From positions 11,284,001 through 11,348,000 of the forward strand of contig OZ024757.1 of assembly GCA_964016885.1 (NCBI GenBank): 64,000 nucleotides of DNA. The letters run 5' to 3'. This DNA is from Eledone cirrhosa. Taxonomy: Eukaryota. Position numbers and translations under genes: made by a program. Position 1 is the first letter of the stretch. Each line of letters starts with the position of its first letter. The notes under the pieces were generated by a model. The model was not told the origin of the DNA, made no database searches, and saw only the letters and a list, made by a program, of their open reading frames with translations. Positions 8,334 to 64,000 of this stretch are shown here, one piece after another.

Positions 8334-10169
8334 TTAGCTGTATACTTTGTGAAAAGTCTTATGGAATTTATGCAAGCAGATAGAAAACAAATCTGTACGT
8401 CTATTTATTATAGAATCTAGATTAGAGATAATGGTAAATTTTTCATTTAGGCAGAGATTACAGATTTTAGATAGAGAGCTGTTCAAGTATGAAGACGCAG
8501 AAGAAACCTTCTTCCAAAAGATGGTATATTTAATGTTTTTGTCTTTCAAGGACCATATGAGTTCTGAGAGAGCCGTGTTGGTTCTTTTAAGTTTGTATTT
8601 AAAAGATGAATGATGATTATAGAGACGAGCTTTAAAAGAGGTGGAAGTGGAGCCAAAATAGGTGAAGGAATTGGTGCTAGTTATAACTTTACATTCATAA
8701 ATTAAGTTTTTATCAAGGCAATGGTTGTTGAGAGGACATTTATTTTTAATGCGGCAGTTGCAATTAGAGAGATTATTAATGAGTGACCTAGTGTTATCTA
8801 TAGAAGGAATTGGATTGGAGAAGTTGTTTGCGATAGGAATAATAGTTTCTTGATTTAGAGTTGGATTATGAACATTTAGCGAAGTTGTGTTTGACGTTGT
8901 ATTTGGGTTTACAGAAATTAGCCTAGGGTTTACAATGACGTCGGGAGTACTATTACTGTTATTATGAAATTCAGTGTTGGAAGGAAGAGATTTAGTATTT
9001 AGTATTTTATTGTTGTGTTTAGAGATAATGTTGGAAATATTGGAGGATGTAGAATAAGAAAATTTTATGGTGTGTTTGTTAAATATTTTACTATAGATAT
9101 GTGAGGGAGGGAAGCATTTATTTAAGGCACTAAAGAATAATTTAGGAATATTGTTATTAATAGAGATGGAGAAAGGAGCATTATACCAGATTATGTTTTT
9201 GTATCTAGGTCTTTTATTAAAGTTATTGGAATGATCATGATTAATTATTCTACTGTAAGTTTTTCTAGAATTTGTTTCTTTACTATATTTGATTTTATCA
9301 GGATAGCCGGCTTTATAAAGTGCGTTATTATAGTAATTGGCGTTAGCATCAAAGATGTTTTTATTAGAAGATATGTTAGATATTCTTTTTCCAATATTAC
9401 TAACTATAGCATTCTTGATATTGGTAGGATGGTTAGATTTAAAGTTAACATAATTTAGGTTCTCATTGTTTTTATGGTAAGGGTAATATAGGCCAGTGTC
9501 AAGATTAAGAGATACATCCAAGAAATTAGCTAGTTTGATACTGTTATCAAATTCAATTTTTAGGTTATTAAAGAGATTACGTATATTGTTCTTAATAATA
9601 TTAAGGTTAACTATATTGCAATTTAAGATAGTAAAGAGTCCATCGTCACGATAAATTCCACCGCGAAGTTGAGGAATTTTCCGACTCAAAGAGTTCAAAA
9701 TAAAGATACCAATTAAATCAGTCAATTGGGATGAATCGGATGCTCCCATTGTGATGTCGAAGTTGTTAGAGGTATCGGCTCTGGTCCAATATTCGTTGTT
9801 GAACTCTAGGATGGTTTTACGTGCGGTGAGGATGATGTGAAGTTCATCTGTGGTGATGTCAGAATATTTAAGTGCGAAAGATAGAGCATTATTGAGAAGT
9901 GAAGGCGAAATGGAGGAATAGTAGCTGGCAATATCAAATTGAATAAATTTTAGTTTGTTTTTATTATCCAATTTGTTGAACCAGCCAATCACTTCAGAAG
10001 TACCAAACCATAAATTTAGGTTCAAAGAAGAGCAATTAGAACTAACCTGTGGGATAATTCTATCCAAGATGGCTTTACTAACAACCCCCAGATCAGATTT
10101 AGAGGGGGCGATTAATCTAACAGGTAGTTCAGTGCGAAAATTGTTTTTGTGATCCGTTAGAATATTCAT
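8334..10169 (-). CDS. Penelope-like reverse transcriptase + GIY-YIG endonuclease (N-terminally truncated, frame open)
   Basis: DHK..RLIAPSKSDLG, FDIASYYSSI, FDITMGA, GIYRDDGL, FLDVSLNL, CNCx5CPLxxxC, NLIYECK..YFGST..FKARLYNH, CNLCLNEK..CLH. No internal stops. Confidence 0.9.
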   Translation of the reverse strand: MNILTDHKNNFRTELPVRLIAPSKSDLGVVSKAILDRIIPQVSSNCSSLNLNLWFGTSEVIGWFNKLDNKNKLKFIQFDIASYYSSISPSLLNNALSFALKYSDITTDELHIILTARKTILEFNNEYWTRADTSNNFDITMGASDSSQLTDLIGIFILNSLSRKIPQLRGGIYRDDGLFTILNCNIVNLNIIKNNIRNLFNNLKIEFDNSIKLANFLDVSLNLDTGLYYPYHKNNENLNYVNFKSNHPTNIKNAIVSNIGKRISNISSNKNIFDANANYYNNALYKAGYPDKIKYSKETNSRKTYSRIINHDHSNNFNKRPRYKNIIWYNAPFSISINNNIPKLFFSALNKCFPPSHIYSKIFNKHTIKFSYSTSSNISNIISKHNNKILNTKSLPSNTEFHNNSNSTPDVIVNPRLISVNPNTTSNTTSLNVHNPTLNQETIIPIANNFSNPIPSIDNTRSLINNLSNCNCRIKNKCPLNNHCLDKNLIYECKVITSTNSFTYFGSTSTSFKARLYNHHSSFKYKLKRTNTALSELIWSLKDKNIKYTIFWKKVSSASSYLNSSLSKICNLCLNEKFTIISNLDSIINRRTDLFSICLHKFHKTFHKVYS

Positions 10170-10556
10170 CCGCAATACATTATTCTTTTCTCTCTATCAT
10201 CAAACTTTTTAATCTCAATACATATTAACTCCCTCTCCTTCTTCGTACATATTTTTCCCTTCGTTAATTTTCAAATTCTTTTAATTTATACATTATCTTC
10301 CAACGGTTTTCAACCTCTCTATGTAAAACAATATATCTTTTCTCAGTTATAAAAACTATCTCTTTCTCTCTATCACCCATCTCTCCCTCTCCACCTTCAC
10401 TCTCATCTCCTCCCCTTTTTTTCATCCTTTCCACCCCCCCTCTCTAAACAAAATATTTTCCCAATATCACACATCAATCTAAAATTACTTTTCATATGTT
10501 GATTTAAAACTGCACTATCCACAAGTGTTTTTTAGCCTTAATATCATGTCCTCCTG

Positions 10557-11974: not shown

Positions 11975-12365
11975 ATATAGAATTCACAAGAATAAAAGCT
12001 ATGTTCAAAGCATTTATTCACTTACAATTGTTTCATCCAAACCAAGGCTTGGAGTCTTCGGACCATTTTTCAATGCTTGTACACATAATTGACCTCCTTT
12101 CCAACGCAAGAGACGTACAGATACATATATATATCTATTGATGTACAGTGGAGTGACATATATTATACTATACTATATTATATGTCACTCCACTGTACAT
12201 CAATAGATATATATGTATCTGTATGTCTCTTGCGTTGGAAAGGAGGTCAATTATATGTACAAGCATTGAAAAATGCTCCGAAGACTCCAAGCCTAGGTTT
12301 GGATGAAACAATTGTAAGTGAATAAATGCTTTGAACATAGCTTTTATTCTTGTGAATTCTATATA
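11975..12365. mobile_element. Foldback element: ~185-bp inverted arms, each with a hammerhead-like motif and AATAAA
   Basis: Near-perfect palindrome centred near 12171, inserted in (TA)n. Confidence 0.85.
12274..12320 (+). ncRNA. Minimal hammerhead-like motif (non-canonical core)
   Basis: TGCT-CCGAAGA-CTCCAAGCC-TA-GGTTTGGAT-GAAA-C-AATT-G-TA-AGTG-AATAAA. It has U4C and a C/T mismatch at the base of stem II. Mirror copy at 12019-12065 (minus). Confidence 0.55.
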
Positions 12366-13139: not shown

Positions 13140-14170
13140 CTATTTCTCTCATTTCTCTCCAGCCGTCGCATATCCTCTGCAGTTGCTGCCCATGTCTCAC
13201 TACCATGCAGCATCGCGCTCTTCACACCGGCATCATATAACCAGCCTTTCGTATGCAGGGAGAAACCCTTCTTCGACAGCAGCTCCCTAAACTTCTTCCA
13301 ACCCGTCCTTATTCTAGATACTATGGCCTCTGAACCCCCCCCCCCCCTCCCATGCTAATCTGATCTCCTAGGTACCGGAAGCTATCCACCACTTCTATAG
13401 CACCTGCCTGCATTTGTAAAATGTGTCTATCACTGTGACTTCTACTGTCTAATTTCCCTGTACATCTACTGCATACGTATTTCTCCCTACCTGTTAGTTT
13501 GCCTGCTATCCCGCTACATCTCTTGTGTACCCAGGATCTGCATTGTGCGCATTTTATGGAATTTATGCCAGTTCCTTTTCTGCATATCGAACATGGCCAT
13601 TTCCCTGATGAAATCAGATTTTTGTCCTCTTTTCTACTCATCAACACTTTTGTGTTAGCTAGGTTCACTCTCAGTCCTCTTGCTTCCAACTGCTGTTTCC
13701 ATAGCCAGAATTTATTCTCTAGCTCCTCTACTGATTCTGCTATAAGAACCAGATCATCAGTATAGAGAAGTTCCCATGGACATCCAGTCTTTAGCTCCTC
13801 TGTTATGGCTTGGAGGACTATAATGAACAAGAGTGGGCTGAGGACGGAACCTTGATGTACACCTACTTGCATCTTGAATTCCTCACTAAACTCCATTCCT
13901 ACCCTGTCTTTACTGACAGCACCTCTGTACAAAGTTTGCACTGTCCTCACAAGCCATTCCCCAACACCTAGTTTCCTTAGGGACCACCATGACAGATCGG
14001 GGTACCCTATCAAAGGCCTTCTCTAGGTCAACAAAGGCTAAGTATAGAGTATAGTGGCTTATTCATCTCTAAGAACCTCTCTTGTAATTGTCTCACCAAG
14101 AAGAGCGCATCTGTTGTACTTTTCCCAGACACAAAACCAAACTGCATCTCATCTAGTTTAACCCTTTCAT
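13140..14170 (-). mobile_element. RTE LINE RT fragment (family B), frameshifted
   Basis: MQFGFVSGKSTTDA, GVHQGSVLSPLLF, LLYTDDL, PHD-like Cys cluster, VDSFRYLG. Confidence 0.9.
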
Positions 14171-14227: not shown

Positions 14228-14257
14228 CATATATATATATATACATATATATATATG

Positions 14258-15495
14258 TCTAAGACTAAAGTCCTAGTTTGTAGGAAGGAAAATAGGGCAC
14301 AGGTACCCTCAGGGAAATGGCCATGCTCAGTGTGTAGGAAAGGAGTAGGCAGAAATTCCATTTTATGTCCCAAATGCAAAGTATGGGTACATAAAAATGT
14401 AGTGGGATCACAAGTAAACTATCTAAGAACGTAGACTTTATATGTGGCCGATGCTCAGGTGCAATAAGTAGCAAGTGTCCACAGGATACTAGCTCCTTCT
14501 ATTGCCCAGATGGTTCTATAGAAATAGTAGACACTTTCCGTTACCTGGGTGACGAAATCAGCAGTGGTGGAGGGTGCTCTGAAAGTACAGTAGCCAGAGT
14601 CAGAACGGGATGGAAAGAGTTCAGAGAGCTTATACCGCTGTTGGGCGCTAAAGGTTTCTCTCTAAAAATGAAAGGCAGATTGTATGATGCTTGTATATGA
14701 ACAACAATGCTACATGGCAGTGAGACATGGGCATTACGTGCAGAGGACCTGCGTGGACTGGAAAGGAACGTAGCATGCATGCTCCGTTGGATGTGTAATA
14801 GTAATATACGTGAACAGCAAAGCATAAATGAACTAAGTGAGAAATTAGGAATAAGAGGGATCAGATGCTGTTTACTCGAGAGAAGACTACGGTATGGCCA
14901 TGTGATGCGCATCTAAGACGACAGCTGCATAAAAACGTGCAGGGCGATCAAAATTGATGGTAGTTACAGAGTAGGTAGACCCAGAAAAACCTGGGACGAT
15001 CTGATAAATTCCGACATTACACACTTGCACCTCTCTAAGACGATGTCACTGGAACGAGATCTTTGGCGCTACGCAGTAATACAGAAGACCCACCTTCCAC
15101 ATGTACAGAGTGAAACCTACAATCAGTAGGCTCCTCATAACCAAATATACACCCCAATCCACTACCCCTACCCTATCCTCCCACTCCCACCAACCTCTCT
15201 CTATTGGTACCACAACATCCAGTCCAAATAAATGAGAAAATGAGATCGAGATCATGTAGGTATCATAAAAAAACTCACAGTCCATGCTGTAATGTGGTCG
15301 TGTAGGTAACACGGTAAAAAGTTCCCAGTTCCACACTGTAAATGTGGTTGGGCATCCAGCCGTAAAAAACCTGCCAGATAGTCCTATATGAGCGAGACAC
15401 GGTCACCCGACCAACCTTGCCTCAAGTGGGACAACTTCCGTCTAACCCATGCTAGCGTGGAAAATGGACGTTAAACGAAGATGATGATGATGATA
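14258..15495 (+). mobile_element. RTE LINE 3' portion (family A)
   Basis: KTKV..GKWPCSVC..YLG..HGSETW..GRPRKTW, then 3' UTR and (GAT)n tail. Contains stops and frameshifts. Confidence 0.9.
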
Positions 15496-17861: not shown

Positions 17862-20116
17862 TCAGCATCGTTTAACGTCCATATTCCACGCTTGCATGGG
17901 TTTGGACGGGCGTTTTCCAACTTGAGGCAAGAGTGGTTGTCTTGCTCGCATAGGACTGTCTGGCGGGTTTTCTACGGCTGGATGCCCTTCCTAACACCAA
18001 CCACATTTACAGTGTAGAACTGGGAGGTTTTTACCGTGTTATCTACCATTCACATTACAGCGTGGACCTACACGACCTCATTTGTTTCGGCCTGGATGTT
18101 GTGGTACCAACATAACTTTACATTGAAAGGGGTGGTGTGGATGGGGTGGAGGTAGTGTTACGGGGGTGTATTTTGTTAGAGGTGTCTACTGATTGTATTA
18201 GGTTTTACTTTGTATTTAGGTAAGGCGGGTCTTCTCTATTACTGTGAAGTGCCAAAGATCTCGGTCCAGTGACATTGTCTTGGAGAGGTGTAAGTGTGTG
18301 AGGTCGGAATTTATCAAGTCGTCCCAGGTTTTTCTGGGTCTGCCTACTCTGTGGCTACCGTCTATTTTTATTGTCCTGCACTTTTTTATGCAGCTGCCGT
18401 CTTTCATGCGCATCACGTGACCATACCAACGTAGCCTTCTCTCGAGTAAACAACATCTGATACCTCTTATTTCTAATCTTTCCCTTAGTTCGTTTATGGT
18501 TTGCTGTTCACGTATATTACTATTACACATCCAGCGGAGCATGCAAGCTACGTTCCTCTCTAGTCTGCGTATATCCTCTGCACACAATGCCCAGGTCTCA
18601 GTGCCATGCAACATTGCTGTTCGTATGCAGGCATCATACAGCTTGCCTTTCAATTTAAGGGAAAACCCTTTAGCGGCTAATAGTGGTATAAGCTCTCTGA
18701 ACTTTTTCCATCCAGTTCTGACTCTAGCTATTGTACTTTCAGAGCACCCTCCCCCACTGCTGATTTTGTCACCCAAGTAACGGAAGCTGTCCACTATTTC
18801 TATAGAACCATCTGTGCAATGGAATGTGCTAGTATTCTGTGGGAACTTGCTGCTACTTATTGCACCAGAGCACCGACCACATATAAAATCTATGTTCTTA
18901 GTTAGCTTACTTGTGATCCCACTACATCTTTTATGCACCCATACTTTGCATTTGGGACATAAAATGGAGTTTCTACCTACTCCTTTCCTACACACTGAGC
19001 ATGGTCATTTCCCGGATGGGACCGCCGCCCTATTTTCCTTCCTACAAACTAGAACTTTAGTCTTAGACAGGTTAATTTTAAGGCCTTTTGATTCTAGGCC
19101 ATGCTTCCATGTTTGGAATTTCTTCTCTAGTTCGGCCATTGATTCAGCTATGAGCGTTAGATCATCTGCGTATAGGAGTTCCCATGGGCAGCCGGTCTTG
19201 AACTCCTCTGTTATAGCCTGAAGGGCAATAATAAATAGTAGGGGGATAAGAACGGAGCCCTGATGAACACCAACTTTTACGCTAAACTCTTCACTATATT
19301 CGTTGTTAATTCTAACCTTGCTGACTGTTTCTTTATACATGGCTTGTATAGCTCTCACAAGCCATTCATCAACACCTAGTTTTCTAAGAGCCCAACAGAT
19401 AATGGAACGGGGGACTCTGTCGAAGGCTTTCTCCAAGTCGACAAAAGCTAAGTATAGGGGTTTACTTTTAGCTAGGTACTTCTCCTGTAGTTGTCGTACA
19501 GGTGTCCCACCGTTCCAGAAGCTTTCAACATCTCAGCAACTATTTCCGAAGGCCCAGCCGCCTTACCCTTCTTCATATCTTTGATTGCCTTACTTATTAT
19601 ACTACCTTCGACTAACACTGCTGGTCCCTCTATTGGGTCGATGTGGGGGAGACTGTCTTTCTCCTATTTATTCTCCTCATTTTGTAGCCTTTCGTAGTGA
19701 CACTTCCAAGCTACCTTCTTATCAGCGTCAGTGATGGCAAGTACACGATCATCATTAAGTACACACTTCTCCGCGACAATATCACGGTTTTCCTTGACAC
19801 ATTGCCTAACAATCCTGAACACGTCACGTTTTTGGTCTTTGCGTTGTAGAACATGCTTGAACTTTCTTTCCTCTGCTTCCCTTCTTGCGAAGTACACTTG
19901 TCTCCTAGCTTCCCTCCTGGCCACTTGATAGTCTTCTCTACTTCCCCCATTCCGCCATACATTCCAAGCCTGCTTTTTGGCCTTAATTGACTCCTCCTAC
20001 TGTTCCACCACCATGTTACTCTCCTCCTGCCTATAGGCCTGTTCCAGCCACAGACTTCATCTGCTGCCATCAGCAGGTTTGCTTTCAGGAATTCCCACTG
20101 TTCCTCTATATTGTAC
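17862..20116 (-). mobile_element. RTE LINE (family A), longest copy, 5'-truncated with internal deletion
   Basis: TWWWN, DLEKAFDRV, QGSVL, LLYADD, PHD-like cluster, FRYLG, LRWYGHV, GRPRKTW, 3' UTR. Deletion junction near 19500. Confidence 0.92.
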
Positions 20117-21809: not shown

Positions 21810-23282
21810 ATAAAAAGGGGATGCTCTGGAGAGGAGCAATTATAGGGGTATAAAACTGATGGATCGGGTTATGAAAGTGGCAGAAAGGATATTAGCACAA
21901 CTAATTAGAGAAAGGGTCAAACTAGATATGATGCAGTTTGGTTTTGTGCCTGGGAAAAGTACAACAGATGCCCTCTTCTTGGTGGGACAATTGCAAGAGA
22001 GGTTCTTAGAGAAGAATAAGTCACTATACTTAGCCTTTGTTGACCTAGAGAATGCCTTTGATAGGGTACCCCAATCTGTCATCTGGTGGTCACTAAGGAA
22101 ACTAGGTGTTGAGGAATGGCTTGTGAGGACAGTGCAAACTATGTACAGAGGTGCTGTCAGTAAAGTCAGAGTAGGAATGGAATTTATTGAGGAATTCCAG
22201 ATACAAGTAGTACATCAAGGTTTGGTCCTCAGCCTGCTCTTATTTATTATAGTCCTCCAAGCCATAACAGAGGAGTTTAAGACTGGCTGCCATGGGAACT
22301 TCTCTATGCTGACGATCTGGTTCTTATAGCAGAATCAGTAGAGGAGCTAGAGAATAAATTCTGGCTATGGAAACAGCAGTTTGAAGCAAGAGGATGGAGT
22401 GTGAACCTAGCTAAGACAAAAGTGTTGATGAGTAGAAAAGAGGACAAAACTCTGATTCCGTCAGGGAAATGGCCATGTTCGATATGCAGAATAGGAAATG
22501 GCATAAATTCTATAAAATGCACACAATGCAGATCCTGGGTACACAAGAGATGTAGCGGGATAGCAGGCAAACTAACAGATAGGGAGAAATATGTATGCAG
22601 TAGATGTACAGGGAAATTAGACAGTAGATATCGCATTGATAGACACATTTTTCAAATGCAGGAGGGCACTATAGAAGTGGTGGCTAGCTTCCGGTACCTA
22701 GGAGATCAGATTATCATGGGATGAGGGTGTTCCGAGGCCATAGTAACTAGAATAAGGACGGGTTGGAAGAAGTTTAGGGAGCTGCTTCCTCTGCTGAAGA
22801 AGAAGGGTTTCTCACTGCGTACGAAAGGCCGGTTGTATGATGCCTGTGTGAGGAGCGCGATGCTGGATGGTAGTGAGACATGGGCAGCGACTGCAGAGAA
22901 TAAGCGACGGCTGGAGAGAAATGAGGCAAGCATGCTCCGTTGGATGTGCAGTGTAAATGTGCTTCAATGACCCAGCATAAATCTGTTGAGAGAGAAACTG
23001 TGTCTGACAGGGATAGAATGTAGTGTACGGGAGAGGAGACTGAGGTGGTATGGACATGTGATGGAGGATGACCGATGGGTGAAGAAGTGCCAGTTGAAGG
23101 AAGACGTGGTAGAGGTAGACCACGAAAAACATGGGCGGAGGTGGTGAGAACAGACCTCAGATCATTGAAGTTCATGGTGGAGATGAAGAAGGACCGTGAC
23201 GAGTGGAGAGATGCTGTGCTGAATAAGACCCGTCCCACCCTTGCAAGCAGGGAAAAGCGGACGTAAAATGATGATGATGGTG
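21810..23282 (+). mobile_element. RTE LINE (family B), 5'-truncated, frameshifted
   Basis: KGDALERSNYRGIKL through GRPRKTW..DRDEW and (GAT)n tail. Confidence 0.92.
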
Positions 23283-23302
23283 ATATATATATATATATAT
23301 AT

Positions 23303-23530
23303 ATCATCATCATCACTGTTTTACGTCCGTTCTTCTATGCTAGCATGGGTTAGACGGATTGTCCTGTTGTGGGCAGTGTCCGGTTGGCTGACCTTGTCTT
23401 GCTCAGACGGGAACTGATTTTGGCTTGATTTCTACAGCTGGATGCACTTCCTAAGACCAACCTTATTGACAGTGAGTGTTGGGCACTTTTCTTCCGTGGT
23501 GCCTACATGTCCACTTTATAGTGTGGGTTG
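23303..23530 (-). mobile_element. RTE LINE 3' UTR (family C), tail-to-tail with previous copy
   Basis: (CAT)n, then the reverse complement of the 20545-20760 UTR. Confidence 0.8.
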
Positions 23531-25430: not shown

Positions 25431-26705
25431 TTAAGATTTCTCCTCTGCATGTATGAGTTTGTGAGTAGTTAGGCTACTTTTCCCAGAGAATGATATAGCA
25501 CAGATATCACAGTGATATGGCTTGTCTCCTGTATGGGTACGTTTGTGGCTAGTTAAGTTACCACTTACAGAGAATGATTTACCACAAATATCACAGTGAT
25601 ATGGCTTGTCTCTTGTATGGGTACGTATGTGTCTATTTAAATGACCACTTACAGAGAATGATTTACCACAGATATCACAGTGATATGGCTTGTCCCCTGT
25701 ATGGGTACGTATGTGTCCCGTTAAGTTACTACTTTGAGAGAATGATTTACCACAGATATCACAGCGGTATGGCTTGTCTCCTGTATGTATACGTTTGTGG
25801 CTAGTTAAGGTACCACTATCAGAGAAAGATTTACCACAGATATCACAGTGATATGGCTTGTCTCCTGTATGTATACGTTTGTGGCTAGTTAAGGTATTAC
25901 TTTCAGTGAATGATTTACCACAGATATCACAGTGATATGGCTTGTCTCCAGTATGTATATGCTTGTGTCTAGTTAAGGTACTACTATCAGAGAATGATTT
26001 ACCACAGATATCACAGTGATGTGGCTTCTCTCCTGTATGGGTACGTATGTGTCTCGTTAAGTTACTACTTTGAGAGAATGATTTACCACAGATATCACAG
26101 TGGTATGGTTTGTCTCCTGTATGTATACGTTTGTGGCTAGTTAAGGTACTACTATCAGAGAATGATTTACCACAGTTATCACAGTGATATGGCTTGTCTC
26201 CTGTATGTATACGTTTGTGGCTAGTTAAGGCATTATTTTCAGAGAATGATTTACCACAGATATCACAGTGATATGGCTTGTCTCCTGTATGTATACGTTT
26301 GTGGCTAGTTAAGGTACCACTTACAGAGAATGATTTACCACAGATATCACAGTGATATGGCTTGTGTCCTGTATGTATATGTTTGTGTCTAGTTAAATTA
26401 CTACTAACAGAGAATGATTTACCACAGATATCACAGTGGTATGGCTTCTCTCCTGTATGTATGCGTTTGTGTTTAGTTAAATAAAAACTTACAAAGAATG
26501 ATTTACCACAGATATCACAGTGATATGGCTTGTCCCCTGTATGCATAACTTTGTGAGTATTTAAGGTACTACATATATTGAATGATTTACCACAGATATT
26601 GCAGTGATATGGTTTCTCTTCTCCAACTTTTGTCATCTCACCAGGAATACTAAACATTTTCGATTGTGTTTCGCATTTAACTTTTTCACTCAATTTATTT
26701 TCCAT
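25431..26705 (-). CDS. C2H2 zinc-finger protein, 14 tandem fingers, single coding exon (gastrula zinc finger-like)
   Basis: 14 x [10 protein letters not shown]-x5-L-x2-H-x3-H with TG(D/E)KP linkers. First ATG at 26705 (MENKLSEK); the track's 26723 start is GTG. Acceptor TTTCTTATTTCAG at 26883-26895 (minus). Confidence 0.93.
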
Positions 26706-26979
26706 AATAATTTTTTCTTCCACAGAATATACAAATATTTTACTTGTAATATTTTTTATATTATATTCTTAAAAAATAATATTTCCCTCAACTGTGATTT
26801 CAGTTAATAGACTTCAAATGATGATAAATAGAGGTGATGTATCCGAGATTGAAAATAATTTATCCCAATGTCATCTGGTATTCTGAAATAAGAAAGAAAC
26901 AGTATGAGATAATGCAGAATACTTAAAAGCAGAGATAGATTTAACAGTGGAAACTTTATATTTCTATATTGATAAACTG

Positions 26980-27459: not shown

Positions 27460-28070
27460 AGAAGGGAAAACAGGTCCCTGATCCCCTCAGAAAAATGGCT
27501 TTGCTCAGTGTGCTAGAAAGGTGTAGGTAGAAATTTCATTCTCTGTCCAAAATACAAACAATGGCTACACAAGAGATGTAGTGGGATCTCAGTATATATA
27601 TATACATTAAGACATTGTCACTGGACCGAGATCTTTGGCGCTACTCAGTAATACAGAAGACTCGCCTTGCCTATGTATGAAGCAAAACCTACTGTCAGTA
27701 GGTACCTCTTAACCAAATATACACCTCCATCCCACTACCCCTACCCCCATCAACACCACCCTTTCTCTGTAAAGTTATGTTGGTACCACAACATTCAGTC
27801 CTAAATAAATGAGGTCGTGTAGGTGTCACGACTAAAAAACACACAGTCCACGCTGTAATATGGCTGTGTAGGTAACATGGTACAAACCTCCCAGTCCACA
27901 CTGTAAATCTTGTTGGTGTTAGGAAGGATATCCAGCCATAGAAAACCTGCCATCTAGTCCTATACAAGTGAGACACGGTCACCCGACCAATCTTGCCTCA
28001 AGTGGGACAATTCCCGTCTAAACCCAGGCTAGTGTGGAAGGTAGACGTTAAACAATGATGATTATGATGA
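27460..28070 (+). mobile_element. RTE LINE 3' part (family A) with internal deletion
   Basis: PHD-region remnant joined to DRDLW, 3' UTR and GAT tail. Confidence 0.8.
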
Positions 28071-28119: not shown

Positions 28120-29563
28120 GTAGGTACAGCATTGTTCTCATAAATTGCTACAAAGGTAAAGGGGATGCTCTAGAGAGGAGCAATTAGAGGGGCATAAAGC
28201 TGATGGATCAGGTTATGAAAGTGGCAGAGAGAATATTAGTGCCGCTGATTAGAGAAAGAGCCAATTTAGATGAGATGCAGTTTGATTTTGTGCCTTGGAA
28301 AAGTACAACAGAAGCCCTCTTCTTATTGAGGCAACTACAAGAGAGGTTCTTAGAGAAGAATAAGTCTCTATACTTAGCTTTTGTTGACCTAGAGAAGGCC
28401 TTTGATAGGGTACTCCGTTCTGTAATCTGGTGGTCCCTAAGGATACTAGGTGTAGAGGAATGGCTTGTGAGGACAGTGCAAGCTATGTACAGGGGTGCTG
28501 TCAGTAAAGTGAGGAATTCCAGATACAAGTAGGTGTACATCAAGGTTCGTTATAGGCCTACAAGCCATAACAGAGGAGTTTAAGACTGGATGCCCATGGG
28601 AACTTCTCTATACTGATGATCTGCTTCTTATAGCAGAATCAGTAGAGGGGTTAGAGAATAAATTCTGGCTATGGAAACAGCAGTTGGAATCAAGAAGCCT
28701 GAGAGTGAACATAGCTTAAACAAAAGTGTTGATGAGTAGAAAAGAGGACAAAACTCTGATTCCATCAGGGAAATGGCCATGTTCGATATGTGGGAAAGGA
28801 ACTGGCATAAATTCCATAAAATGTACGCAATGCAGATATTGGGTACACAAGAAATGTAGTGGGATAGCAGGCAAACCAACAGGTAGGGATAACTATGTAT
28901 GCAGTAGATGTACAGGGAAAGTTGGCAGTAGTAATCGCAGTGATAAACACATTTTTCAAATACAGGTGGGTTCTAGAGATGTGGTTGATAGCTTCCGGTA
29001 CCTAGGTGATCAGATTAGCATGGGAGGGGGTTGTTCTGAGGCCATAGTATCTAGAAAAAGGACAGGTTGGAAGAAGTTGAGGGAGCTGCTTTCTCTGTTG
29101 ACAAAGAAGGGTTTCTCCCTGCATACGAAAGGATGGTTATATGATGCCTGTGTGAGATGTGCGATGCTACATGGTAGTAAGACATGGGCAGCAACTGCAA
29201 AGGATATGTGACGGCTGGAGAGAAGCAAGTACGCTCCATTGGATGTGCAATGTCAATGTGTGTGAACGACCAAGCATAGACGAGTTGAGAAAGAAACTGG
29301 GTATAAGAGGGATAGGTTGTGGTGTGCAGGAGAGAAGACTGAGATGGTATGGACATGTGACCACTGGGTAAAGAAGTGCCAAATAATCCCAGTAGTAGGA
29401 AGACGCAGAAGAGGTAGACCACGTAAAACATGGGCGCAGGTGGTGAGAGAAGACCTTTGATCGCTGAAACTCACCGAGGAGATGACAAGTGGAGAGATGC
29501 TGTGCTGAATAGGACCTGTCCCACCCTTGAAGCAGGGAAAAACAGACTTAAAATGATGATGAT
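28120..29563 (+). mobile_element. RTE LINE (family B), 5'-truncated, degenerate
   Basis: YKGKGDAL, DLEKAFDRV, LYTDD, PHD-like cluster, FRYLG, GRPRKTW, GAT tail. Confidence 0.9.
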
Positions 29564-29793
29564 ATATATATATATATATACTGGTATTCAAGATAACATT
29601 GTTAGAACTCATTGCAGCCTTGAAGAGATGGTTTCAACAAGATTGGGTGATGAAAGTTATAGTTTTTGTAGTAGGATCTCATCACTTAAGGTTCCTTCAA
29701 AGATTCTTCTACAGTTACAGAGTCATTTATATATATGTGTGTGTGTTTTGAACAATGAAAGTAAAACTAGAGACAAAGATATGTTCTTGATTA

Positions 29794-33502: not shown

Positions 33503-36500
33503 TGTAGCAAGAGTTGCCTCCCTTGCCATGACAATATCATCACCGCTCTCTAGACAGGAAGTAGGTGGAGTTGCTTCCCTTTGGGATTGACAGACTCCCT
33601 GTCAATCAATTTCTATAGGCCTAAAAGTTTTCTATAGGCGTTTCATTCCTCATTGTGCTAATTGGCTATCTTCCCTTACTGACATTTTAAAAAATCGTCG
33701 TAAGAAGAATAAAGACATTTCCTTGACACAAGGACAGCTTCAGGACTTCCAGTCTGCCAAGACAACACTCGCTAGTTCTTCTTTGCTATCCCACCCGGTA
33801 CCAGAGGCCAAGCTTTCGCTTTGTGTTGATGCATCTGATACCGTTGTGGGAGCAGTTTTACAGCAGTCTTACGCTGAAAACCAACAACCTTTGGCATTTT
33901 TCTCGAGGAAGTTGAAACCAGTAGAAACGCGTTATAGCACGTTTGGGCGGGAATTATTAGCCATATATCTGTCGGTGAAACATTTCTCTCATATCCTTGA
34001 GGGGAGAAATTTTACGGTTTTTACCGACCACAAACCATTGACCTTCGCTTTGAGGGCCAAAGCCGACAGATATTCGCCCAGAGAGACAAGGCACCTGGAC
34101 TACGTTTCACAATTTACAAACGATATCCAGCACATTGCCGGCTCGCCAACATAGTTGCAGACGCATTATCACGTTTGCCAATTAGCTCCATCTCGTCATC
34201 CCAGGAGATTGACTTAGGTCGTTTAGCTGCAGACCAACTTGCACTCCAATCGTTGGACACTCCTTTCTACTGAATTTGCGACTTGCATTTTCAAATATCT
34301 GCCCTTGTCCACCACCGACAGGCAGATTCTTTGTGATGTATCTACGGATGCACCACGACCACTTGTTCCTGAGACTCACCGTCGAATTGTGTTCCTGGCT
34401 TTGCACAACATTTCTCATCCAGGATCTGCTGCCACAGTTAAACTCATAACAGCCAGATTCTTCTGGCCAAATATGAGGCGCGACATTGCTGCTTGGTGCC
34501 GTTCCTGTATCGCTTGCCAGAAATCGAAGATCCATAGACACGTCCGGACTCCACTTGGTACTTTCAGTACTCCAGATGCTCGGTTCCAACACATCCACAT
34601 TGACATCGTTGGACCTTGGCCATTCAGCAGTGGATATTCCTACATATTGACGTGTGTCGATCGTTTTTCGCGATGGCCTGAAGCCATCCCTTTACAAGAC
34701 ATGACTGCTTAGACTGTAGCACGTGCCCTGGTATCAGGGTGGATTACCTGCTTTGGGGTACCAACTACACTCACTACAGACCGCGGTAGACAATTCGAGT
34801 CCCATCTCTTCTCTGAGCTCACCAAAATAATTGGAGCTCAACGGATTCGGACCACAGCCTATCATCCTGCTTCAAATGGAATGGTGGAACGATTCCACCG
34901 TCAATTAAAGGCCGCTCTTCGCGCCTATCCAGACTCTCAACGTTGGAGCGAGTACCTTCCTATTGTGTTATTAGGAATTCGGTCATCAATAAAGGAGGAC
35001 CTTGGGTTCTCCCCGGCCGAATTAATTTACGGTGCTCCTCTAGCGTTGCCTGGGCAAATGCTTGCCCCTGTTGATCTTGCTTTCCAAGATCCGCTTTCCT
35101 ACGTATCCCGTCTGCGTTCTTATTTTCAGGACCTGCCGCCGATGGATACGAGGAAGCAAACTGTAAAATTTGCGGTCCCGAGGGACATTGCCTCGTGGAC
35201 CCATGTGTTTGTAAGGAACGATGCTGTGAGACCACCCCTCACACAACCATACTCTGGACCCTACCGTGTGTTAGCAAGCACTGACAAACATTTCACTGTA
35301 GACGTTAAGGGGTCCAGAGAGACAATTTCGGTGGATAGACTGAAAAGGGCACACAATGACGCTCATACACCGGAGCCACAAATACCCCAATCTTTCTCTC
35401 TTGTGCATACACGTGCTCCTTCTGCCCCACCTTCACCTACATACAAGACTACGACCCGTTCCGGTCGGAGAGTCCACTGGCCCAAAAAGTTCTGCCAAAC
35501 TATTTTTATGTGAACTGGCCATTGGAGCCTTATATATATATTTTTTTCTTGCTGTTCTTGTTATTTATTGATTTATTGTATTACAATGTACCTCTCATTA
35601 CCATTTCACTGGATGTATATATATGTTTTTCGTTTCCTTTACAACGAACATTTTAAGCTATATTCTTCTATTTGCCGGTTTATAAATTTACCACGTAAAT
35701 TTGCCGTTGAAAACCGCGCATTTATTAAGAATGCTTATTTCTCTGGTCGCTGGCCTCTTGACCCTTCCAGGTCAACGCATTCACAACATCAACAACACAC
35801 AACACAGCTTCACCAACAGCTAAAACCAGCAGAACAAGCCAGACAATTTATTTCTGCAGCACTCTGCCTGTGAGAAATTCCCTTCGGAAGTTGGAAATTT
35901 CATGTTATACCACAGACCAGAAACCACCTGCATTCATTCTCTGGAACACATTCTTTACTGCTGTCATGTGACTGCACACATGTTAACTGTATTTTAGATA
36001 TTTGAACTTTTGTCCTCTTCTCTTACTTTCATTACTTTGTACCATAATTTCCATGCCTCTTACATGCTCGCCATCTTACTCCATGCATGCTTCTTTCGAT
36101 TTTTATGTTTTAAAAATCTGGCGGGGGATAATGTAGCAAGAGTTGCCTCCCTTGCCATGACAATCTCATCACCGCTCTCGAGACAGGAAGTAGGTGGAGT
36201 TGCTTCCCTTTGGGATTGACAGACTCCCTGTTGGTCACTTCCGGTCAACTCATATAAAAGGAGCAGTTTACCACGAAATCTCTCTCTTGCCTCCTGATCC
36301 CTGAAGTGGTAACACCTGCGACCTTAGCTGGCGATGATTCCTTCTTGATGACCCTTTCGTTACCAAGAACAATGCAACTTGCAGCATGAGATGAGAGCCT
36401 AAGATGTCAATACCAGCTAGAAAAGATCTCTTCTTTTCTCTACCAACTCCAGCTTTGTATCATGACCATCGGGTAACAAATCCATATATTTAATGCCTTT

Positions 36501-42539: not shown

Positions 42540-45500
42540 AAGAGTTCTAGTCCTTTAGAAGCCATTTCTGCATTAAATATTGTACATACACTACTATTTC
42601 GTTCAAATTAATGAGTTGTAGCACTGTAGAAGCTATTTATCTAATAAATATTGCATATAATCTATTAATACTCTTCAAATTAAAGAGTTCTAATGCAGTA
42701 AAAGCCGTTTCTGTATTAAATATTGCATTCATACTGCTATTTACTACAAATTAAAGAGTTCTTGTCCTTAAGAAGCCATTTCCATATTAAATATGGCATA
42801 TAATGTACTATTTCCTTTGAATTAAAATTTCTAGTCCTTTAGAAGCCATTTCTGCATTAAATATTGCGTATACTCTACCATTTCCTTCGAATTTATGGGT
42901 TCTAGATCTATTGAAGCTGTTTCCCTATTAAATATTGCCTATACTGTACTATTTCCTTTGAATCGACGAGTTCTAGTCTTTTAGAAGCAATTTCTGTATT
43001 AAATATTGCACATACATTACTATTTCCCTCGAATTAATGAGATTTAGTCCTTTAGAAGCCATTTCCGTATTAAATATGGCATATAATCTACTAATACCCA
43101 TCAAATTAAAGAGTTCTACTGCTTGAGAAGCCATTTCTTTATTAAATATGGCATATATACTAGTATTTCCTACAATTATATTAGTTTTACTCCCTTAGAA
43201 TCCAGCCCTTTCTTAAATATTTCTGTATTAAATATGGCATATAATCTACTAATATACTTCATATTAATGACTTCTAGCCCTTTACAAGCCATTTCTGTAT
43301 TAAATATTGCATATAATGTACTATTTCCTTCGAATTAATGAGCTTTTGCCCTTTAGAAGCCATTTCTATATTAAATGTTGCATATAATCTACTAATATCC
43401 TTCAAATCAGTGAGTTTTAGTCCTGTAGAAGCCATTTCTTTATTAAGTATGGCATATATACTACTATTTCCTTCGAATTAATGAGCTTTACTCCTTTAGA
43501 GACCATTTCTGTATTATATGTGGCATATAATCTACTCTTTCCTATGAATTGAAGGTTTCTAGTCTTTTAGAGGCAATTTCTGTATTAAATATAGCATATT
43601 ATCTATTAATGCCCCTCATATTAATCAGTTTCAGCCCTGTAGAAGTTATTTCTGTATTAAATATTGCATATACACTACTATTTCTTTCGAATTAATGAGT
43701 TCTAGCCCTGAGGAATCTATTTACGTATTAAATATTGCATATAATCTATCAATTACCTTCAAATTAAAGAGTTCTAGTGCTTCAGAAGCCATTTCCGTAT
43801 TAAATATTACATATATACTACTATTTCCTCCAAATATATTAGTTCTAGTCCTTTCAGAGTAATTTCTGTATTGAATATTGCATATACTGTACTATTTCCT
43901 TAAAACTAAAGAGTTCTAGTGCTTTAGAAGCCATTTATTTATTAAATATTGCATATACTCTACTATTTCCATCAAATTAAAGAGTCCTAGTATTTTAGAG
44001 ACTATTTCTGTATTAAATATTGTGTATACTCTACTAGTTCCTTCGAATTACTGGTTTCTAGCTCTGCGGAAGCTATTTCTGTATTAAATATTACATATAT
44101 ACTTCTATTTCCTCCAAATATATTAGTTGTCATCCTGTAGAAGACATTTCTGTATTAAATATACGATATATACTACTATTTGATTCGATTTAAAGAGTTC
44201 TAGTCCTTTAGAAGCCATTTCTGTATTAAATATAGCATAAAATCTAGTAATACCCTTCAAATTAATGACTTTCAGCCCTGTAGAAGCCATTTCTGTATTA
44301 AATATTGCATATACACTAATATTTCGTTCAAATTAATGAGTTGTAGCACTGTAGAAGCTATTTATCTATTAAATATAGCATATAATCTATTAATACTCTT
44401 CAAATTAAAGAGTTTTAATCCTGTAGAAGCCGTTTCTGTATTAAATATTGGATTCATACTACTATTTACTACAAATTAAAGAGTTCTTGTCCTTAAGAAG
44501 ACATTTCCATATTAAATATGGCATATAATGTACCAATTCCTTTGAATTAAAATTTCTAGTCCTATAGAAGCCATTTCTGCATTAAATATTGCGCATACTC
44601 TACTATTTCCCTCAAATTTATGGGTTCTAGCTCTGTTGAAGCTGTTTCTCTATTAAATATTGCCTATACTGTACTATTTCCTTTGAATTGACGAGTTCTA
44701 GTCATTTAGAAGCAATTTCTGTATTAAATATTGCACATATATTACTATTTCCCTCGAATTAATGAGCTTTAGTCCTTTAGAAGCCATTTCCATATTAAAT
44801 ATGGCATATAATCTACTAATACTCTTCAAATTAAAGAGTTCTACTGCTTTAGAAGCCATTTCTTTATTAAATATGGCATATATAATAGTATTTCCTACAA
44901 TTATATTAGTTTTACTCCCTTAGAATGCATTCCTTTCTCAAATATTTCTGTATTAAATATGGCATATAATCTACAAATATCCTTCAAATTAATGACTTTT
45001 AGGCCTTTACAATGTATTAATGTATTAAATATTGCATATAATGTAATATTTCCTTCGAATTAATGAGCTTTACTCCTTTAGAGACCATTTCTGTATTATA
45101 TGTGGCATATAATCTACTATTTCCTATGAATTGAAGGTTTCTAGTCTTTTAGAAGCAATTTCTGTATTAAATATAGCATATTATCTATTAATGCCCCTCA
45201 TATTAATGAATTTCAGCCCTGTAGAAGTTATTTCTGTATTAAATATTGCATATACACTACTATTTCCTTCGAATTAATGAGTTCTAGGCCTGAGGAATCT
45301 ATTTACATATTAAATATTGCATATAATCTATTAATATCCTTCAAATTAAAGAGTTCTAGTGCTTCAGAAGCCATTTCCGTATTAAATATTACATATATAC
45401 TACTATTTCCCCCAAATATATTAGTTCTAGTCCTTTGAGAGTAATTTCTGTATTGAATATTGCATATACTGTACTATTTCCTTAAAATTAAAGAGTTCTA

Positions 45501-46860
45501 GTGCTTTAGAAGCCATTTCTGTATTAAATATGGCATATATACTACCAATATCCTTCAAATTAAAGAGTTCTACTGCTTTAGAAGCCATTTATTTATTAAA
45601 TATTGCATTTACTCTACTATTTCCATCAAATTAAAAAGTCCTAGTATTTTAGAGGCCATTTCTGTATTAAATATTGTGTATACTCTACTATTTACTTCGA
45701 ATTACTCGTTTCTAGCTCTGCGGAAGCTATTTCTGTATTAAATATTACATATATACTTCTATTTCCTCCAAATATATTAGTTTTCATCCTGTAGAAGGTG
45801 TTCCTCTATTAAATATACGATATATACTACTATTTGATTCGATTTAAAGAGTTCTAGTCCTTCAGAAGCCATTTCTGTAGTAAATATGACATATAATCTA
45901 ATAATACCCCTGTGGCAGTTGTCTCCCTTGTTGTGACTCACAACCCCAATAGATTAACAACATCTAGACGGGAAGTAGAACCCTTTCTGTAACTTCCGGT
46001 CAGAACCCTATAAAACTAACAACTTTAAGTTCTCACTCTCTCATTTGCCCTTCCGGCATCTGGCCTTCGCCAGGCGTCTTCTGCCAGCCCGCGTTTGCCT
46101 GGCAATCAAAACGGTAACTACTAACTTTGTTTCATTCTTTCGTTTATTCATTGACATGTCAACTATACTGTTAACTTGTTGATTAAATATTATACACACA
46201 AACCATGTCTCTTTGTTACATTCATACACACCAGTACACCGCTAGAGTTCTTCGCTATACCCCTCATATTAATGAGTTTTAGTCTTGTAGAACCAATTTC
46301 TGTATTAAATAATTCATATATACTACTATTTGATTCAAATTAAAGAGTTCTAGTCCTTTAGAACCCATTTCTGTATTAAATATGGCATATAATCTACTAA
46401 TACCCCTCATATTAATGAGTTTTAGTCTTGTAGAAGCCATTTCTGTATTAAATATGGCATATATACTACTAATACACCTCATATTAATGAGATTTTAGTC
46501 TTGTAGAAGGCATTTCTGTAGTAAATATTGCATATATACTACTATTTGATTTGAATTGAAGAGTTTTAGTCATTTAGAACCCATTTCCGTATTAAATATG
46601 GCATATAATCTACTAATACCCCTCATATAAATGAGTTTTAGTCTTGTAGAAGCCTTTTTCTGTATTAAATATTGGATATACAGTATATTTCCATCTAATT
46701 AAAGAGATCTCTTCATTTAGAAGCCATTTGCGTATTAAATATGGCATATAATCTACTAATACTCCTCATATTAATGAGTTTTAGTCTTGTAGAAGCCATT
46801 TCTGTATTAAATATTGCATATATACTACAATTTCATTCTAATTAAAGAGTTCTAGTCCTT
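42540..46860. repeat. ~71-bp AT-rich satellite with ~1.7-kb higher-order repeat
   Basis: TTAAAGAGTTCTAGTCCTTTAGAAGCCATTTCTGTATTAAATATTGCATA... with period 70-72. The variant run at 42601 recurs at 44326. Confidence 0.95.
45911..46259 (+). mobile_element. Solo LTR (Gypsy-related) inserted in the 71-bp satellite
   Basis: TGTGGC...GCTATA ends, CCCC TSD on both sides, TATAAAA. Shares CTCCCTTG, AGAC.GGAAGTAG, ACTTCCGGTCA and GTACACCG with the 36132 LTR. Confidence 0.85.
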
Positions 46861-46865
46861 ATATA

Positions 46866-48070
46866 CAGCTACCTAGAGTACAGACCTCAGAGAGACACAG
46901 AGCCACCTAGGGTACAGACCTCAGACAGACACAGAGCCACCTAGGGTAAAGACCTCAGAGAGAGACCCAGTCACCTAGGGTACAGACCTCAGACAGACAC
47001 AGAACCACCTAGGGTACAGACCTCAGAGAGACACCCAGTCACCTAGGGTACAGACCTCAGAGAGACATAGAGCCACCTAGGGTACAGACCCCAGAGAGAC
47101 ACAGAGCCACCTAGGGTACAGACCTCAGAGAGACACCCAGTCACCTAGGGTACAGACCTCAGACAGACACAGAACCACCTAGGGTACAGACCTCAGAGAG
47201 ACACAGAGTCACCTAGGGTACAGACCTCAGAGAGACACAGAGTCACCTAGGGTACAGACCTCAGAGAGACATAGAGCCACCTAGGGTACAGACCTCAGAG
47301 AGACACCCAGTCACCTAGGGTACAGACCTCAGAGAGACATAGAGCCACCTAGGGTACAGACCTCAGAGAGTCACAGAGCCACCTCGGGTACAGATCTTAG
47401 AGAGACACAGAGATACCTAGAGTACAGACCTCAGGGAGACATAGGGCCACCTAGGGTACAGACCTCAGAGAGACACACTGCCACCTAGGGAACAGACCTC
47501 AGACAGACACAGAACCACCTAGGGTACAGACCTCAGAGAGACACAGAGTCACCTAGGGTACAGACCTCAGAGAGACACCCAGTCACCTAGGGTACAGACC
47601 TCAGAGAGACACAGAGTCACCTAGGGTACAGACCTCAGAGAGACACCCAGTCACCTAGGGTACAGACCTCAGAGAGACACCCAGTCACCTAAGGTATAGA
47701 TCTTAGAGAGACACAGAGTCACCTAGGGTACAGACCTCAGACAGACACAGTGCCACATAGGGTACAGACCTCAGGGAGACACAGAGTCACCTAGGGTACA
47801 GATCTTAGAGAGACACAGAGCCACCTAGGGTACAGACCTCAGACAGAGACAGAGCCACCTAGGGTACAGACCTCAGGGAGACACAGAGTCACCTAGGGTA
47901 CAGATCTTAGAGAGACACAGAGCCACCTAGGGTACATACCTCAGTGAGACATCCAGTCACCTAGGGTACAAACCTCAGAGAGACACAGATCCACCTAGGG
48001 TACAGACCTCGGGGAGACATAGGGCCACCTAGGGTACAGAGAGACAGACAACCAGCTAGAGTACAGACAT
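46866..48070. repeat. 34-bp minisatellite, ~35 copies
   Basis: CTAGGGTACAGACCTCAGAGAGACACAGAG(C/T)CAC. Confidence 0.96.
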
Positions 48071-48219
48071 CAGATTGGTACATTACTGAACTTTAAAGTA
48101 TCGCAGTTTTATACAGGGCTGGTGCTACCATGAAGGCCAACTAGGGTACATTACAGAACCTTAAGGACATACTTAGTTCCCCTGCAACAATATAATATAC
48201 ACATTACCTAGTCTGGTAT

Positions 48220-51200
48220 TATGAAGGCCCTGAACAAGAAAGTTAAAGGTACACTTAATACACAGTGGTGTTAGGAAGGCCCTGAACAAGGATGTTAAAA
48301 TCTACACTCTGTACACAGTAATGTTAGAAGGACCTCAACAAGGATATAAAATGGTACACTTAGTACACAATAATGTTAGGAAGGCCCTGAACAAGGATAT
48401 CCAAATATACACTTAGTACACAGTAATGTTAGGAAGGCCCTGAACAAGGATATAAAATGCTACACTCAGTACACAGTAATGTTAGGAAGGCCCTGAAAAA
48501 GGATATAAAATGCTACACTTAGTACAAAGTAATGGTAGGAAGGGCCTGAACAAGGATATCAAAATCTACACTTAGTACACAGGAATGTTAGGAATGCCCT
48601 GAACAAGGATATCCAAGTCTACACTTAGTACACAGTAATGTTAGGAAGGCCCTGAACAAGGATATACAAATCTACACTCAGTACACAGTAATGTTAGGAA
48701 GGCCCTGAACAAGGATATAATATGCTACACTTAGTACACAGTAATGTTAGGTAGGCCCTGAACAAGAATATAAAATGCTACATATAATACACAATAATGT
48801 TAGGAAGGCCCTGAACAAGGATATAATATGCTACACTTAGTACACAGTAATGTTAGGTAGGCCCTGAACAAGAATATAAAATGCTACATATAATACACAG
48901 TAAATTTAGGAAGGCCCTGAACAAGGATATCCAAATCTACACTTAGTACACAGTAATGTTAGGTAGACCCTGAACAAGGATATAAAATGCTACACTTAGT
49001 ACACAGTAATGATAGGAAGGCCCTGAACAAGTATATCAAAATGTATGCTTACAACACAGTGGTGTTAGGAAGGCCCAGAACAAGGATATAAAATGCTACA
49101 CTTAAAACATAGTAATGATAGGAAAGCCCTGAACAAGGATATCCAAATCAACACTCAGTTCACAGTAATGTCAGGAAGGCCTTGAACAAGGATATGATAT
49201 GCAACACTTAGTACACAGCAATGTTAGGAAGGCCCTGAACAAGGATATAACATGCTACACATAGTACAACATGGTGTTAGGAAGGCCCTCAACAAGGATA
49301 TAAAATGCTACACTTACAACGCAGTGGTGTTAGGAAGCCACTGAACAAGGATATCCAAATCAAAACTCAGTAGACAGTAATGATAAGAATGCCCTGAACA
49401 AGGATATAAAATGCTACACTCAGTACACAGTAATGTTAGGAAGGCCCCGAAAGAAAATAGAAAATGCTACACATAGTACACAGTAATGTTAGGAAGGCCT
49501 GAACAAGGATGTTAAAATCTACACTCAGTACACAGTAATGTTAGGAAGGCCCTGAACAAGGATAAAAAATGCTACACTTAGTATACAGTAATGTTAGGAA
49601 GGCCCTGAACAATGATATCCAAATCTACACTTAGTACACAGTGGTGTTACGAAGGGCCTGAACAAGGATATCCAAATGTACACTTAGTAAACAGTAATGT
49701 TAGGAAGGCCCTGAACAGGGATATAACATTTTACACTCAGTACACAGTAATGATAGGAAGGTCCTGAACAAGGATATCCAAATCTACACTTACAACACAG
49801 TAATGGTAGGAAGGCCCTGCACAAGGATATCCAAATATACACTTAGTACACAGTAATGTTAGGAATGCCCTGAACAAGGATATAAAATGCTACACTCAGT
49901 ACACAGTAATGTTAGGAAGGCCCTGACCAAGGATATAAAATGCTACACTTAGTACAAAGTAATGGTAGGAAGGGCCTGAACAAGGATATCAAAATCTACA
50001 CTTAGTACACAGGAATGTTAGGAATGCCCTGAACAAGGATATCCAAATCTACACTTAGTACACAGTAATGTTAGGAAGGCCCTGAACAAGGATATCCAAA
50101 TCTACACTCAGTACACAGTGATGTTAGGAAGGCCCTGAACAAGGATATTCAAATCTACACTTAGTACACAGTAATGTCACGAAGGCCCTGAACAAGGATA
50201 TAATATGCTACACTTAGTACACAGTAATGTTAGGTAGGCCCTGAACAAGGATATAATATGCTACACTTAGTACACAGTAATGTTAGGTAGGCCCTGAACA
50301 AGAATATAAAATGCTACATATAATACACAATAATGTTAGGAAGGCCCTGAACAAGGATATAATATGCTACACTTAGTACACAGTAATGTTAGGTAGGCCC
50401 TGAACAAGAATATAAAATGCTACATATAATACACAGTAATGTTAGGAAGGTCCTGAACAAGGATATCCAAATCTACACTTAGTACACAGTAATGTTAGGA
50501 AGACCCTGAACAAGGATATAAAATGCTACACTTAGTACACAGTAATGATAGGAAGGCCCTGAACAAGTATATCAAAATGTATGCTTACAACACAGTGGTG
50601 TTAGGAAGGCCCAGAACAAGGATATAAAATGCTACACTTAAAACATAGTAATGTTAGGAAAGCCCTGAACAAGGATATCCCAATCAACACTCAGTTCACA
50701 GTAATGTCAGGAAGGCCTTGAACAAGGATATGATATGCAACACTTAGTACACAGCATTGTTAGGAAGGCCCTGAACAAGGATATAAAATGCTACACATAG
50801 TACAACATGGTGTTAGGAAGGCCCTCAACAAGGATATAAAATGCTACACTTACAACACAGTGGTGTTAGGAAGCCACTGAACAAGGATATCCAAATCAAA
50901 ACTCAGTAGACAGTAATGATAGGAATGCCCTGAACAAGGATATAAAATGCTACACATAGTACACAGTAATGTTAGGAAGGCCCTGAACAAGGATAAAAAA
51001 TGCTACACTTAGTATACAGTAATGTTAGGAAGGCCATGAACAATGATATCCAAATCTACACTCAGTACACAGTGGTGTTACGAAGGGCCTGAACAAGTAT
51101 ATCCAAATGTACACTTAGTAAACAGTAATGTTAGGAAGGCCCTGAACAGGGATATAACATTTTACACTCAGTACACAGTAATGATAGGAAGGTCCTGAAC

Positions 51201-63200: not shown

Positions 63201-64000
63201 AATGGTAGGAAGGCTCTGAACAAGTATATCAAAATCTACACTTACAACACAGTAACGTTAGGAAAGCCCTGAACAAGGATATCCCAATCTACACTCAGTT
63301 CACAGTAATGTCAGGAAGGCCCTGAACAAGGACATAATATGCTACACTTAGTACACAGCAATGTTAGGAAGGCCCTGAACAAGGATATAAAATGCTACAC
63401 ATAGTACAACGTGGTCTTAGGAAGGCCCTCACACAAGGATATGAAATGCTACACTTACAACGTAGTGGTGTTAGGAAGCCCCTGAACAAGGATATCCAAA
63501 TCTACACTCAGTACACAGTTATGTTAGGAGGCGCTGAAAAGGATATAAAATGCTACACTCAGTACACAATGGTGTTAGCAAGGCCACGAGCAAGGATTTC
63601 CAAATCTACTCTTAGTAAACAGTAATGTTAGGAAGGCCCTGAACAAGGATATCAAATTCTACACTTACAATACAGTGGTGTTAAGAAGGCCCAGAACAAG
63701 GATGTTAAAATGTACACTCAGTACACAGTAATGTCATGAAGGCCCTGAACAAGGATATAAAATGCTACACATAGTACAACATGGTGTTAGGAAGGCCCTC
63801 AACAAGGATATAAAATGCTACACTTACAACGCAGTGGTGTTAGGAAGCCCCTGAACAAGGATATTCAAACCTACACTTAGTACACAGTAATGTTAGGAAG
63901 GCCCTGAACAAGGATATAAAATGCTACACTCAGTACACAGTGGTGTTAGGAAGGCCCTGAACAAGGATTTCCAAATCTACACTTAGTAAACAGTAATGTT
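48220..64000. repeat. 53-bp satellite array (~300 copies, runs off window) with higher-order repeats
   Basis: TACACAGTAATGTTAGGAAGGCCCTGAACAAGGATATCCAAATCTACACTTAG; period 53. Confidence 0.98.

Follow-up and report, generated by a model that had tools for sequence, protein, structure and literature searches.

A PHD finger in ORF1 of CR1/L2 LINEs was reportedly described by Kapitonov and Jurka in 2003. These LINE-borne fingers, which either belong to ORF1 or precede the endonuclease, have Pygopus PHDs (2vpb, 3zpv) as their top structural hits, and the CR1/L2 paper terms the structure of ORF2 highly constrained (PMC4120745). A PHD finger inside a retroelement reverse transcriptase (RT) is known from Chlamys Penelope-like elements (five Chlamydomonas families), where it separates RT2a from RT3 or is found within the endonuclease, and where a chromatin role has been suggested (PMC8557442). 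In cnidarians, PYGO-type PHD fingers are fused with different classes of retrotransposons; the preprint text gives no RT position (bioRxiv 10.1101/2021.11.30.470311). An insertion between RT motifs 6 and 7 is likewise known from R2, a site-specific RLE element whose short basic loop '6a' contacts upstream target DNA, is needed for nicking, and is described as unique to R2 (PMC10499050, PMC12180492). Among octopus LINEs, RTE-2_OV of Octopus vulgaris is a single-ORF RTE-clade element whose 1109-residue protein has a terminal C2H2 finger; in that paper the term PHD occurs in the funding section only (PMC9115989), and in a bivalve TE survey it occurs 0 times (PMC10294476).

The element described here is likewise a single-ORF octopus LINE, but its PHD finger interrupts the polymerase itself, between RT6 and RT7, and recurs across hundreds of divergent families of an APE-RT LINE. 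Compared with R2 6a, the insert belongs to a dispersed APE element and consists of a 44-residue zinc finger plus its linkers; compared with RTE-2_OV, the protein of a near-complete copy (P0001, 1021 residues) has an internal PHD finger and no C2H2. Searches of the full-text literature, a scope outside which lie Repbase, Dfam and most subscription papers, returned no account of a LINE with a PHD at RT6/RT7. The finger is genuine and widespread, and its placement there apparently has no earlier description. The novelty is narrower than an earlier, sequence-only reading of this DNA supposed, given the PHD fingers inside Penelope-like RTs and the cnidarian fusions. The latter may include the RT6/RT7 lineage.

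In the 64-kb stretch of DNA analyzed (the window), the finger is encoded on the minus strand at 13462-13593, from first to last zinc ligand, with the C4HC3 pattern C-x2-C-x10-C-x2-C-x4-H-x2-C-x14-C-x2-C. It begins 57 codons past the RT catalytic motif, YTDD here (13753-13764; YADD in most other copies), and stands in frame after motif 6, GLRVNLANTK (13648-13677), and before motif 7, FRYLG (13366-13380). A strand and N-terminal linker (13594-13647), aligned to where the 6a loop of R2Bm begins, lead into the finger, and a variable C-terminal linker and beta-hairpin (13381-13461) lead out of it to motif 7, all on the same strand. The host fragment (13148-14168, minus strand; P0001 residues 564-903; 93% DNA identity to the genomic copy L012) is dead, with three frameshifts, both ends missing, and YTDD in place of YADD; its 5' end adjoins a (TA)n tract.

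A loose PHD regular expression, applied to the whole window in all six reading frames, returned four matches, every one in RT context: the family B finger at 13462-13593 (−); 18870-19001 (−), in a family A copy with all eight ligands and a stop codon two residues ahead of the first Cys; 22476-22607 (+), in a family B copy (21814-23304) that extends to the 3' end; and 28780-28911 (+), in an older family-B-like copy (28123-29580). All four exceed the curated cut-off (24 bits) of Pfam PF00628, at 28.8-30.9 bits (29.0 bits for 13462-13593), and score better against it than against RING, FYVE or C1. Scores for C1 and PHD_2 fall under their Pfam cut-offs; a C1, RING or FYVE identity was rejected as under cut-off in Pfam or last-ranked in the fold search. 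A frameshifted finger at 14324-14454 (+), in the family A fragment 14255-15495, and the N-terminal half of a decayed one at about 27502-27591 (+) bring the window to six copies, all of them broken. Between families A and B, identity in the finger is 61% for DNA and protein alike. Pfam, sequence and fold bear out the sequence-only reading that a canonical C4HC3 PHD finger lies inside the RT. The four complete fingers that it listed are there, although the one that it began at about 22494 starts 18 nt away, at 22476.

Several other features share the window. A 619-residue open frame at 8337-10193 (−) has no Pfam match and carries the motifs FDI..YY, TMG and YRDD; on these RT-like motifs it presumably resembles a Penelope-like element. 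A short inverted duplication with a (TA)n center lies at about 11975-12360, an ORF encoding 14 C2H2 zinc fingers as a tandem array of 84-bp units at 25434-26768 (−), and a broken LTR retrotransposon pol with RNase H and the zinc-binding and core domains of integrase at 33591-35510 (+). Adjacent satellites occupy 42540-64000, with units of 71 bp (42540-46857), 34 bp (46867-48040) and 53 bp (298 copies, 48219-64000).

Beyond the window, the finger-bearing element is an abundant single-ORF LINE of APE-RT (RTE) type. In a search of the 3.0 Gb genome with the RT-PHD segment, 150 copies were scored, at 89-100% identity; the first-look candidates numbered 68,384, which is not a copy number, because a PHD-less query yields 72,657. 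Among eight copies examined for long frames, L012 carries the 1021-residue ORF of P0001, laid out as Exo_endo_phos (9-170), RVT_1 (538-740), PHD (754-797, corresponding to the finger at 13462-13593), motif 7 and thumb. In RTE-clade elements the 3' UTR is very short and closes with simple repeats, and both a C-terminal CCHC and an upstream ORF1 are absent. In family B, (ATG)n starts directly at the stop codon, as in that clade, and the 3' UTR of family A is about 400 nt. A domain search of the 1021 residues found no C-terminal zinc knuckle (CCHC), and seven copies run beyond the reference 5' limit into GT-rich repeats. P0001 is one ORF with N-terminal APE and RT, which is how the RTE clade is defined (PMC13708176). 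The anatomy therefore fits the RTE identity that had been proposed from the sequence, and the label is an anatomical one. The only named close relative of the element is an Octopus bimaculoides UniRef entry, at 58%. Contigs from four presumed-RNA runs yielded short, divergent pieces of the element only. Two genomic copies of the PHD family, L067 and L093, have lost most of the finger and resemble internal deletions in single copies.

The insert is a feature of the lineage and not a local accident. Searches used the RT core alone as query, so that presence of the finger was not selected for, and the 240 best matches to P0001 and to a distant member, P0069, comprised 228 with the finger, four fish RTEs with a 25-residue spacer, and eight that are broken. 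For P0001, the best 120 of 1070 matches included 114 with a finger, 53-57 residues past YADD; the other six were the four fish proteins, one protein ending at the first Cys, and one database protein, P0264, in which motif 6 is joined straight to motif 7. For P0069, 114 of the best 120 of 288 matches had complete fingers, four were broken or degenerate, two were without the motif region, and none had the short spacer. With the motif 6-PHD-motif 7 segment as query, 617 representatives of 50%-identity clusters were recovered at E<=1e-10. Beyond these sets, an Atlas search returned PHD clusters, mostly without recorded taxa, and in two of them 13-22% of the members have RVT_1; a motif scan of prokaryote genomes returned six loci in five MAG contigs. 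All five of the loci with full context are RT-PHD-RT, and we read these loci as host DNA carried along.

The carriers probably share one origin. In a quick IQ-TREE analysis (49 rows, insert cut out, midpoint root, named RTE references absent), a branch with SH-aLRT 97 separates the 41 PHD carriers from only eight PHD-less rows, two of them on long branches. The fish and family C outgroups are taken to be RTE-like on their motifs. PHD distances track RT distances across 92 sequences (Mantel rho 0.36, with 0 of 500 permutations as high; 0.51 for a control segment). Purifying selection on the finger is shown by the comparison of families A and B that had been suggested as a check: pN is 0.25 for the finger, 0.15-0.19 for RT and thumb, and 0.67 for the linker, with pS at 0.79-0.92 (finger 0.25/0.92; linker 0.67/0.80). 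That the insert might be an artefact of the assembly, or a neutral segment passively carried along, has in our view negligible probability. The broken state of every window copy and the direct joining of motifs in P0264 would suit such an account, but nearly all relatives keep the finger, with near-invariant ligands and pN far below pS, and it appears in records of unrelated sources; because the finger is conserved, a neutral passenger is excluded.

Structure prediction, another of the proposed checks, indicates that the finger would fold as a PHD within an RT whose own fold is intact. The AlphaFold2 model of P0001 residues 431-1021 (alignment of 132 sequences) has pLDDT 93.8 and pTM 0.90, with finger blocks at 92-96 and linkers at 82 and 61, the latter C-terminal. 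It superposes on R2Tg with Z 25.9 (496 residues aligned, rmsd 3.7 A), and matches R2Bm with Z 24.7 and L1 ORF2p with Z 21.8. The RT fold is thus predicted to be intact, and the finger to form a folded domain at its side. In the separate PHD fold test (model pLDDT 76), the best match has Z 5.7 at rmsd 2.6 A over 53 aligned residues, and ranks 1-49 of the VIA fold search are PHD-containing entries, as assigned by title or known content. Pygopus PHDs come first by fold, narrowly, the PHD ranks lying within about 1 Z unit.

In R2, motif 6a lies between motifs 6 and 7, its His673 and Lys675 read target DNA, and deletion of 6a in R2Bm (672-677) blocks nicking, according to Wilkinson et al. (PMC10499050). 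The family profile aligns to R2Bm as far as residue 671 (about P0001 742) and the finger begins about eight positions on; by this alignment the finger is therefore placed in the loop equivalent to 6a, an equivalence that is the end of a sequence alignment and not a superposition with DNA. By analogy, the finger loop may face upstream target DNA as R2 6a does.

The residues of the finger can be compared with those of known PHD readers. Residue statistics cover the 211 of 240 fingers with canonical ligand spacing, the 29 rows without it being dropped. Top PHD profile matches are Pygo PHDs (E 1e-6 to 2e-5), followed by the next non-Pygo match at 1e-4. The methyl-lysine cage of Pygo consists of Y341, V350, A356 and W366 (PMC2726290). 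Of the 211 fingers, 178 have Y/F/W at the first of these positions, 208 have V/T at the second, 206 have S/A at the third and 209 have W at the fourth, and 172 keep all four together; family B has Thr at the Val position. The cage tryptophan, two residues ahead of His, is the invariant residue by which H3K4me readers are recognized (PMC3241642), and a second aromatic wall and a small or hydrophobic base are also found. The acidic residues of such readers are not kept, the D352 and E360 equivalents being acidic in 6 of 211 fingers each. Mutation of E360 abolishes H3K4me3 binding by Pygo (PMC2726290). Such acids are common in readers but not present in all, the RAG2 PHD having no acid in its Arg2 pocket (PMC3241642). 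Pygopus remains the best match by sequence and fold, with the walls and base of its K4me pocket kept; in contrast to it, the finger has no EVND aspartate, no E360 and no BCL9-binding long loop 2, and is strongly basic (PMC2726290). The finger does not match a reader of H3K4me0, of BHC80/AIRE type, either. That type is defined by an acidic cluster and the lack of an aromatic cage (PMC3241642), and here the cluster is absent before Cys1 (zero or one acid in the eight preceding residues of 187/211 fingers) and the cage Trp is present. When the finger was modeled together with two Zn and this genome's H3 tail in unmodified form, without use of an alignment, the complex scored 0.01, which is not read as evidence for or against binding.

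A history of the finger can be proposed. An ancestor of the RTE-type lineage probably took a Pygopus-like PHD into the motif 6/7 loop, possibly from the ORF1 of a CR1/L2 element, and the lineage has kept it. There the finger would hold the enzyme on nucleosomal target DNA during insertion: the aromatic/Val/Ser/Trp pocket would take a methylated lysine, most plausibly H3K4me, and the basic surface would grip DNA, where host PHDs instead rely on acidic contacts with the H3 tail. In this way the finger would raise access to chromatin without setting a sequence-specific target. We hold this tether on nucleosomal DNA tentatively, at a little short of an even chance.

The charge of the finger weighs on the other side of that argument, since a net basic finger is unfavorable for binding a basic histone tail. 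Every one of the 211 fingers is net basic (+1 to +10, mean +5.6), 170 have no acid between Cys2 and Cys4, and K/R follows His nearly always. It is accordingly possible, if rather doubtful, that the finger binds nucleic acid only, either upstream target DNA as R2 6a does or the 3' end of its own RNA, without histone reading; conserved aromatics would then stack on bases. Such binding would be consistent with the 6a loop position and with a protein that has no C-terminal CCHC finger. Against it, the four conserved non-ligand positions are those of the Pygo methyl-lysine cage, and the (TA)n junctions are shared with a PHD-less family, which leaves no ground for crediting the finger with a sequence preference.

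One further residue is conserved outside cage and ligands. Three members of the P0069 set carry two tandem fingers (P0475, P0484 and P0493, one related group); the second finger keeps the cage positions in all three, and in all three the near-invariant Asn is replaced there. This Asn, ahead of the Ser-Ile strand, is otherwise kept in 201/211 fingers, a pattern that would fit contact with the RT. The finger might then brace the RT palm, or dock a non-histone protein, such as a host repair or import factor, or a methylated lysine elsewhere. PHDs are known to bind non-histone proteins (PMC3241642), and the pTM of the whole model would suit a brace. We consider this improbable: PHD-less RTEs work with the 25-residue spacer, tandem duplication is tolerated, and the C-terminal linker is variable and modeled at low pLDDT. 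A tether through a methyl-lysine pocket and a basic surface remains the preferred account of the finger.

Insertion sites show no effect of the PHD, and the suggestion of the sequence-only reading that the finger could guide insertion gained no support. At the ends of the PHD family (family B), (TA)3 is found at 36 of 52 3' ends and 26 of 43 5' ends, with a background of 1005/7365 flank windows (14%). Targeting of (TA)n by the finger was nevertheless rejected: strong over background, the preference is matched by an RTE-like family in this genome that has no PHD (11/16 3' ends, 6/14 5' ends; Fisher p 1.0 and 0.35), and cannot be put down to the finger. This suggests a preference shared by both families, possibly driven by microhomology. 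Members of the PHD family (L002-L058) and the PHD-less family (L068-L096) alike sit within (TA)n tracts and terminate in GAT. A preference for promoter-like DNA or for small chromosomes was also rejected. Flank GC does not differ between the families (p 0.22), and CpG o/e of the 3' flank is 0.46 for PHD copies (n=46) and 0.70 for PHD-less copies (n=17; p 0.007), the opposite of promoter-like DNA; the lower CpG counts against promoter targeting. The four largest contigs hold 94/150 PHD copies and 45/58 comparison copies, 28 of these 58 being verified as PHD-less (p 0.049). These comparisons are weak, with small samples and uncorrected p values, and are confounded by family age.

How LINEs reach nucleosome-covered DNA, and what steers them beyond the endonuclease, is the general question that this finger addresses. 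Steering by chromatin readers is, to our knowledge, established for no LINE polymerase. For LTR chromodomains it is established, according to work cited in a preprint (bioRxiv 10.1101/2021.11.30.470311). In the present lineage, hundreds of families have a reader-type domain fixed in a single loop, and a protein of 60 residues makes a testable unit. The loop marks a place where RTE-type enzymes naturally tolerate an insertion, and relatives of these enzymes are under development as gene-insertion tools (PMC13708176). The RT6/RT7 PHD is a diagnostic character of a large LINE subclade, abundant in this genome. That the subclade is an ancient, undescribed one, defined by a histone-methyl reader in a target-facing 6a loop of its polymerase, seems to us somewhat unlikely; if true, it would be the first LINE ORF2 protein to read chromatin marks from inside its RT, and the 6a loop, used also in R2, would be a recurrently used mount for target-sensing modules.
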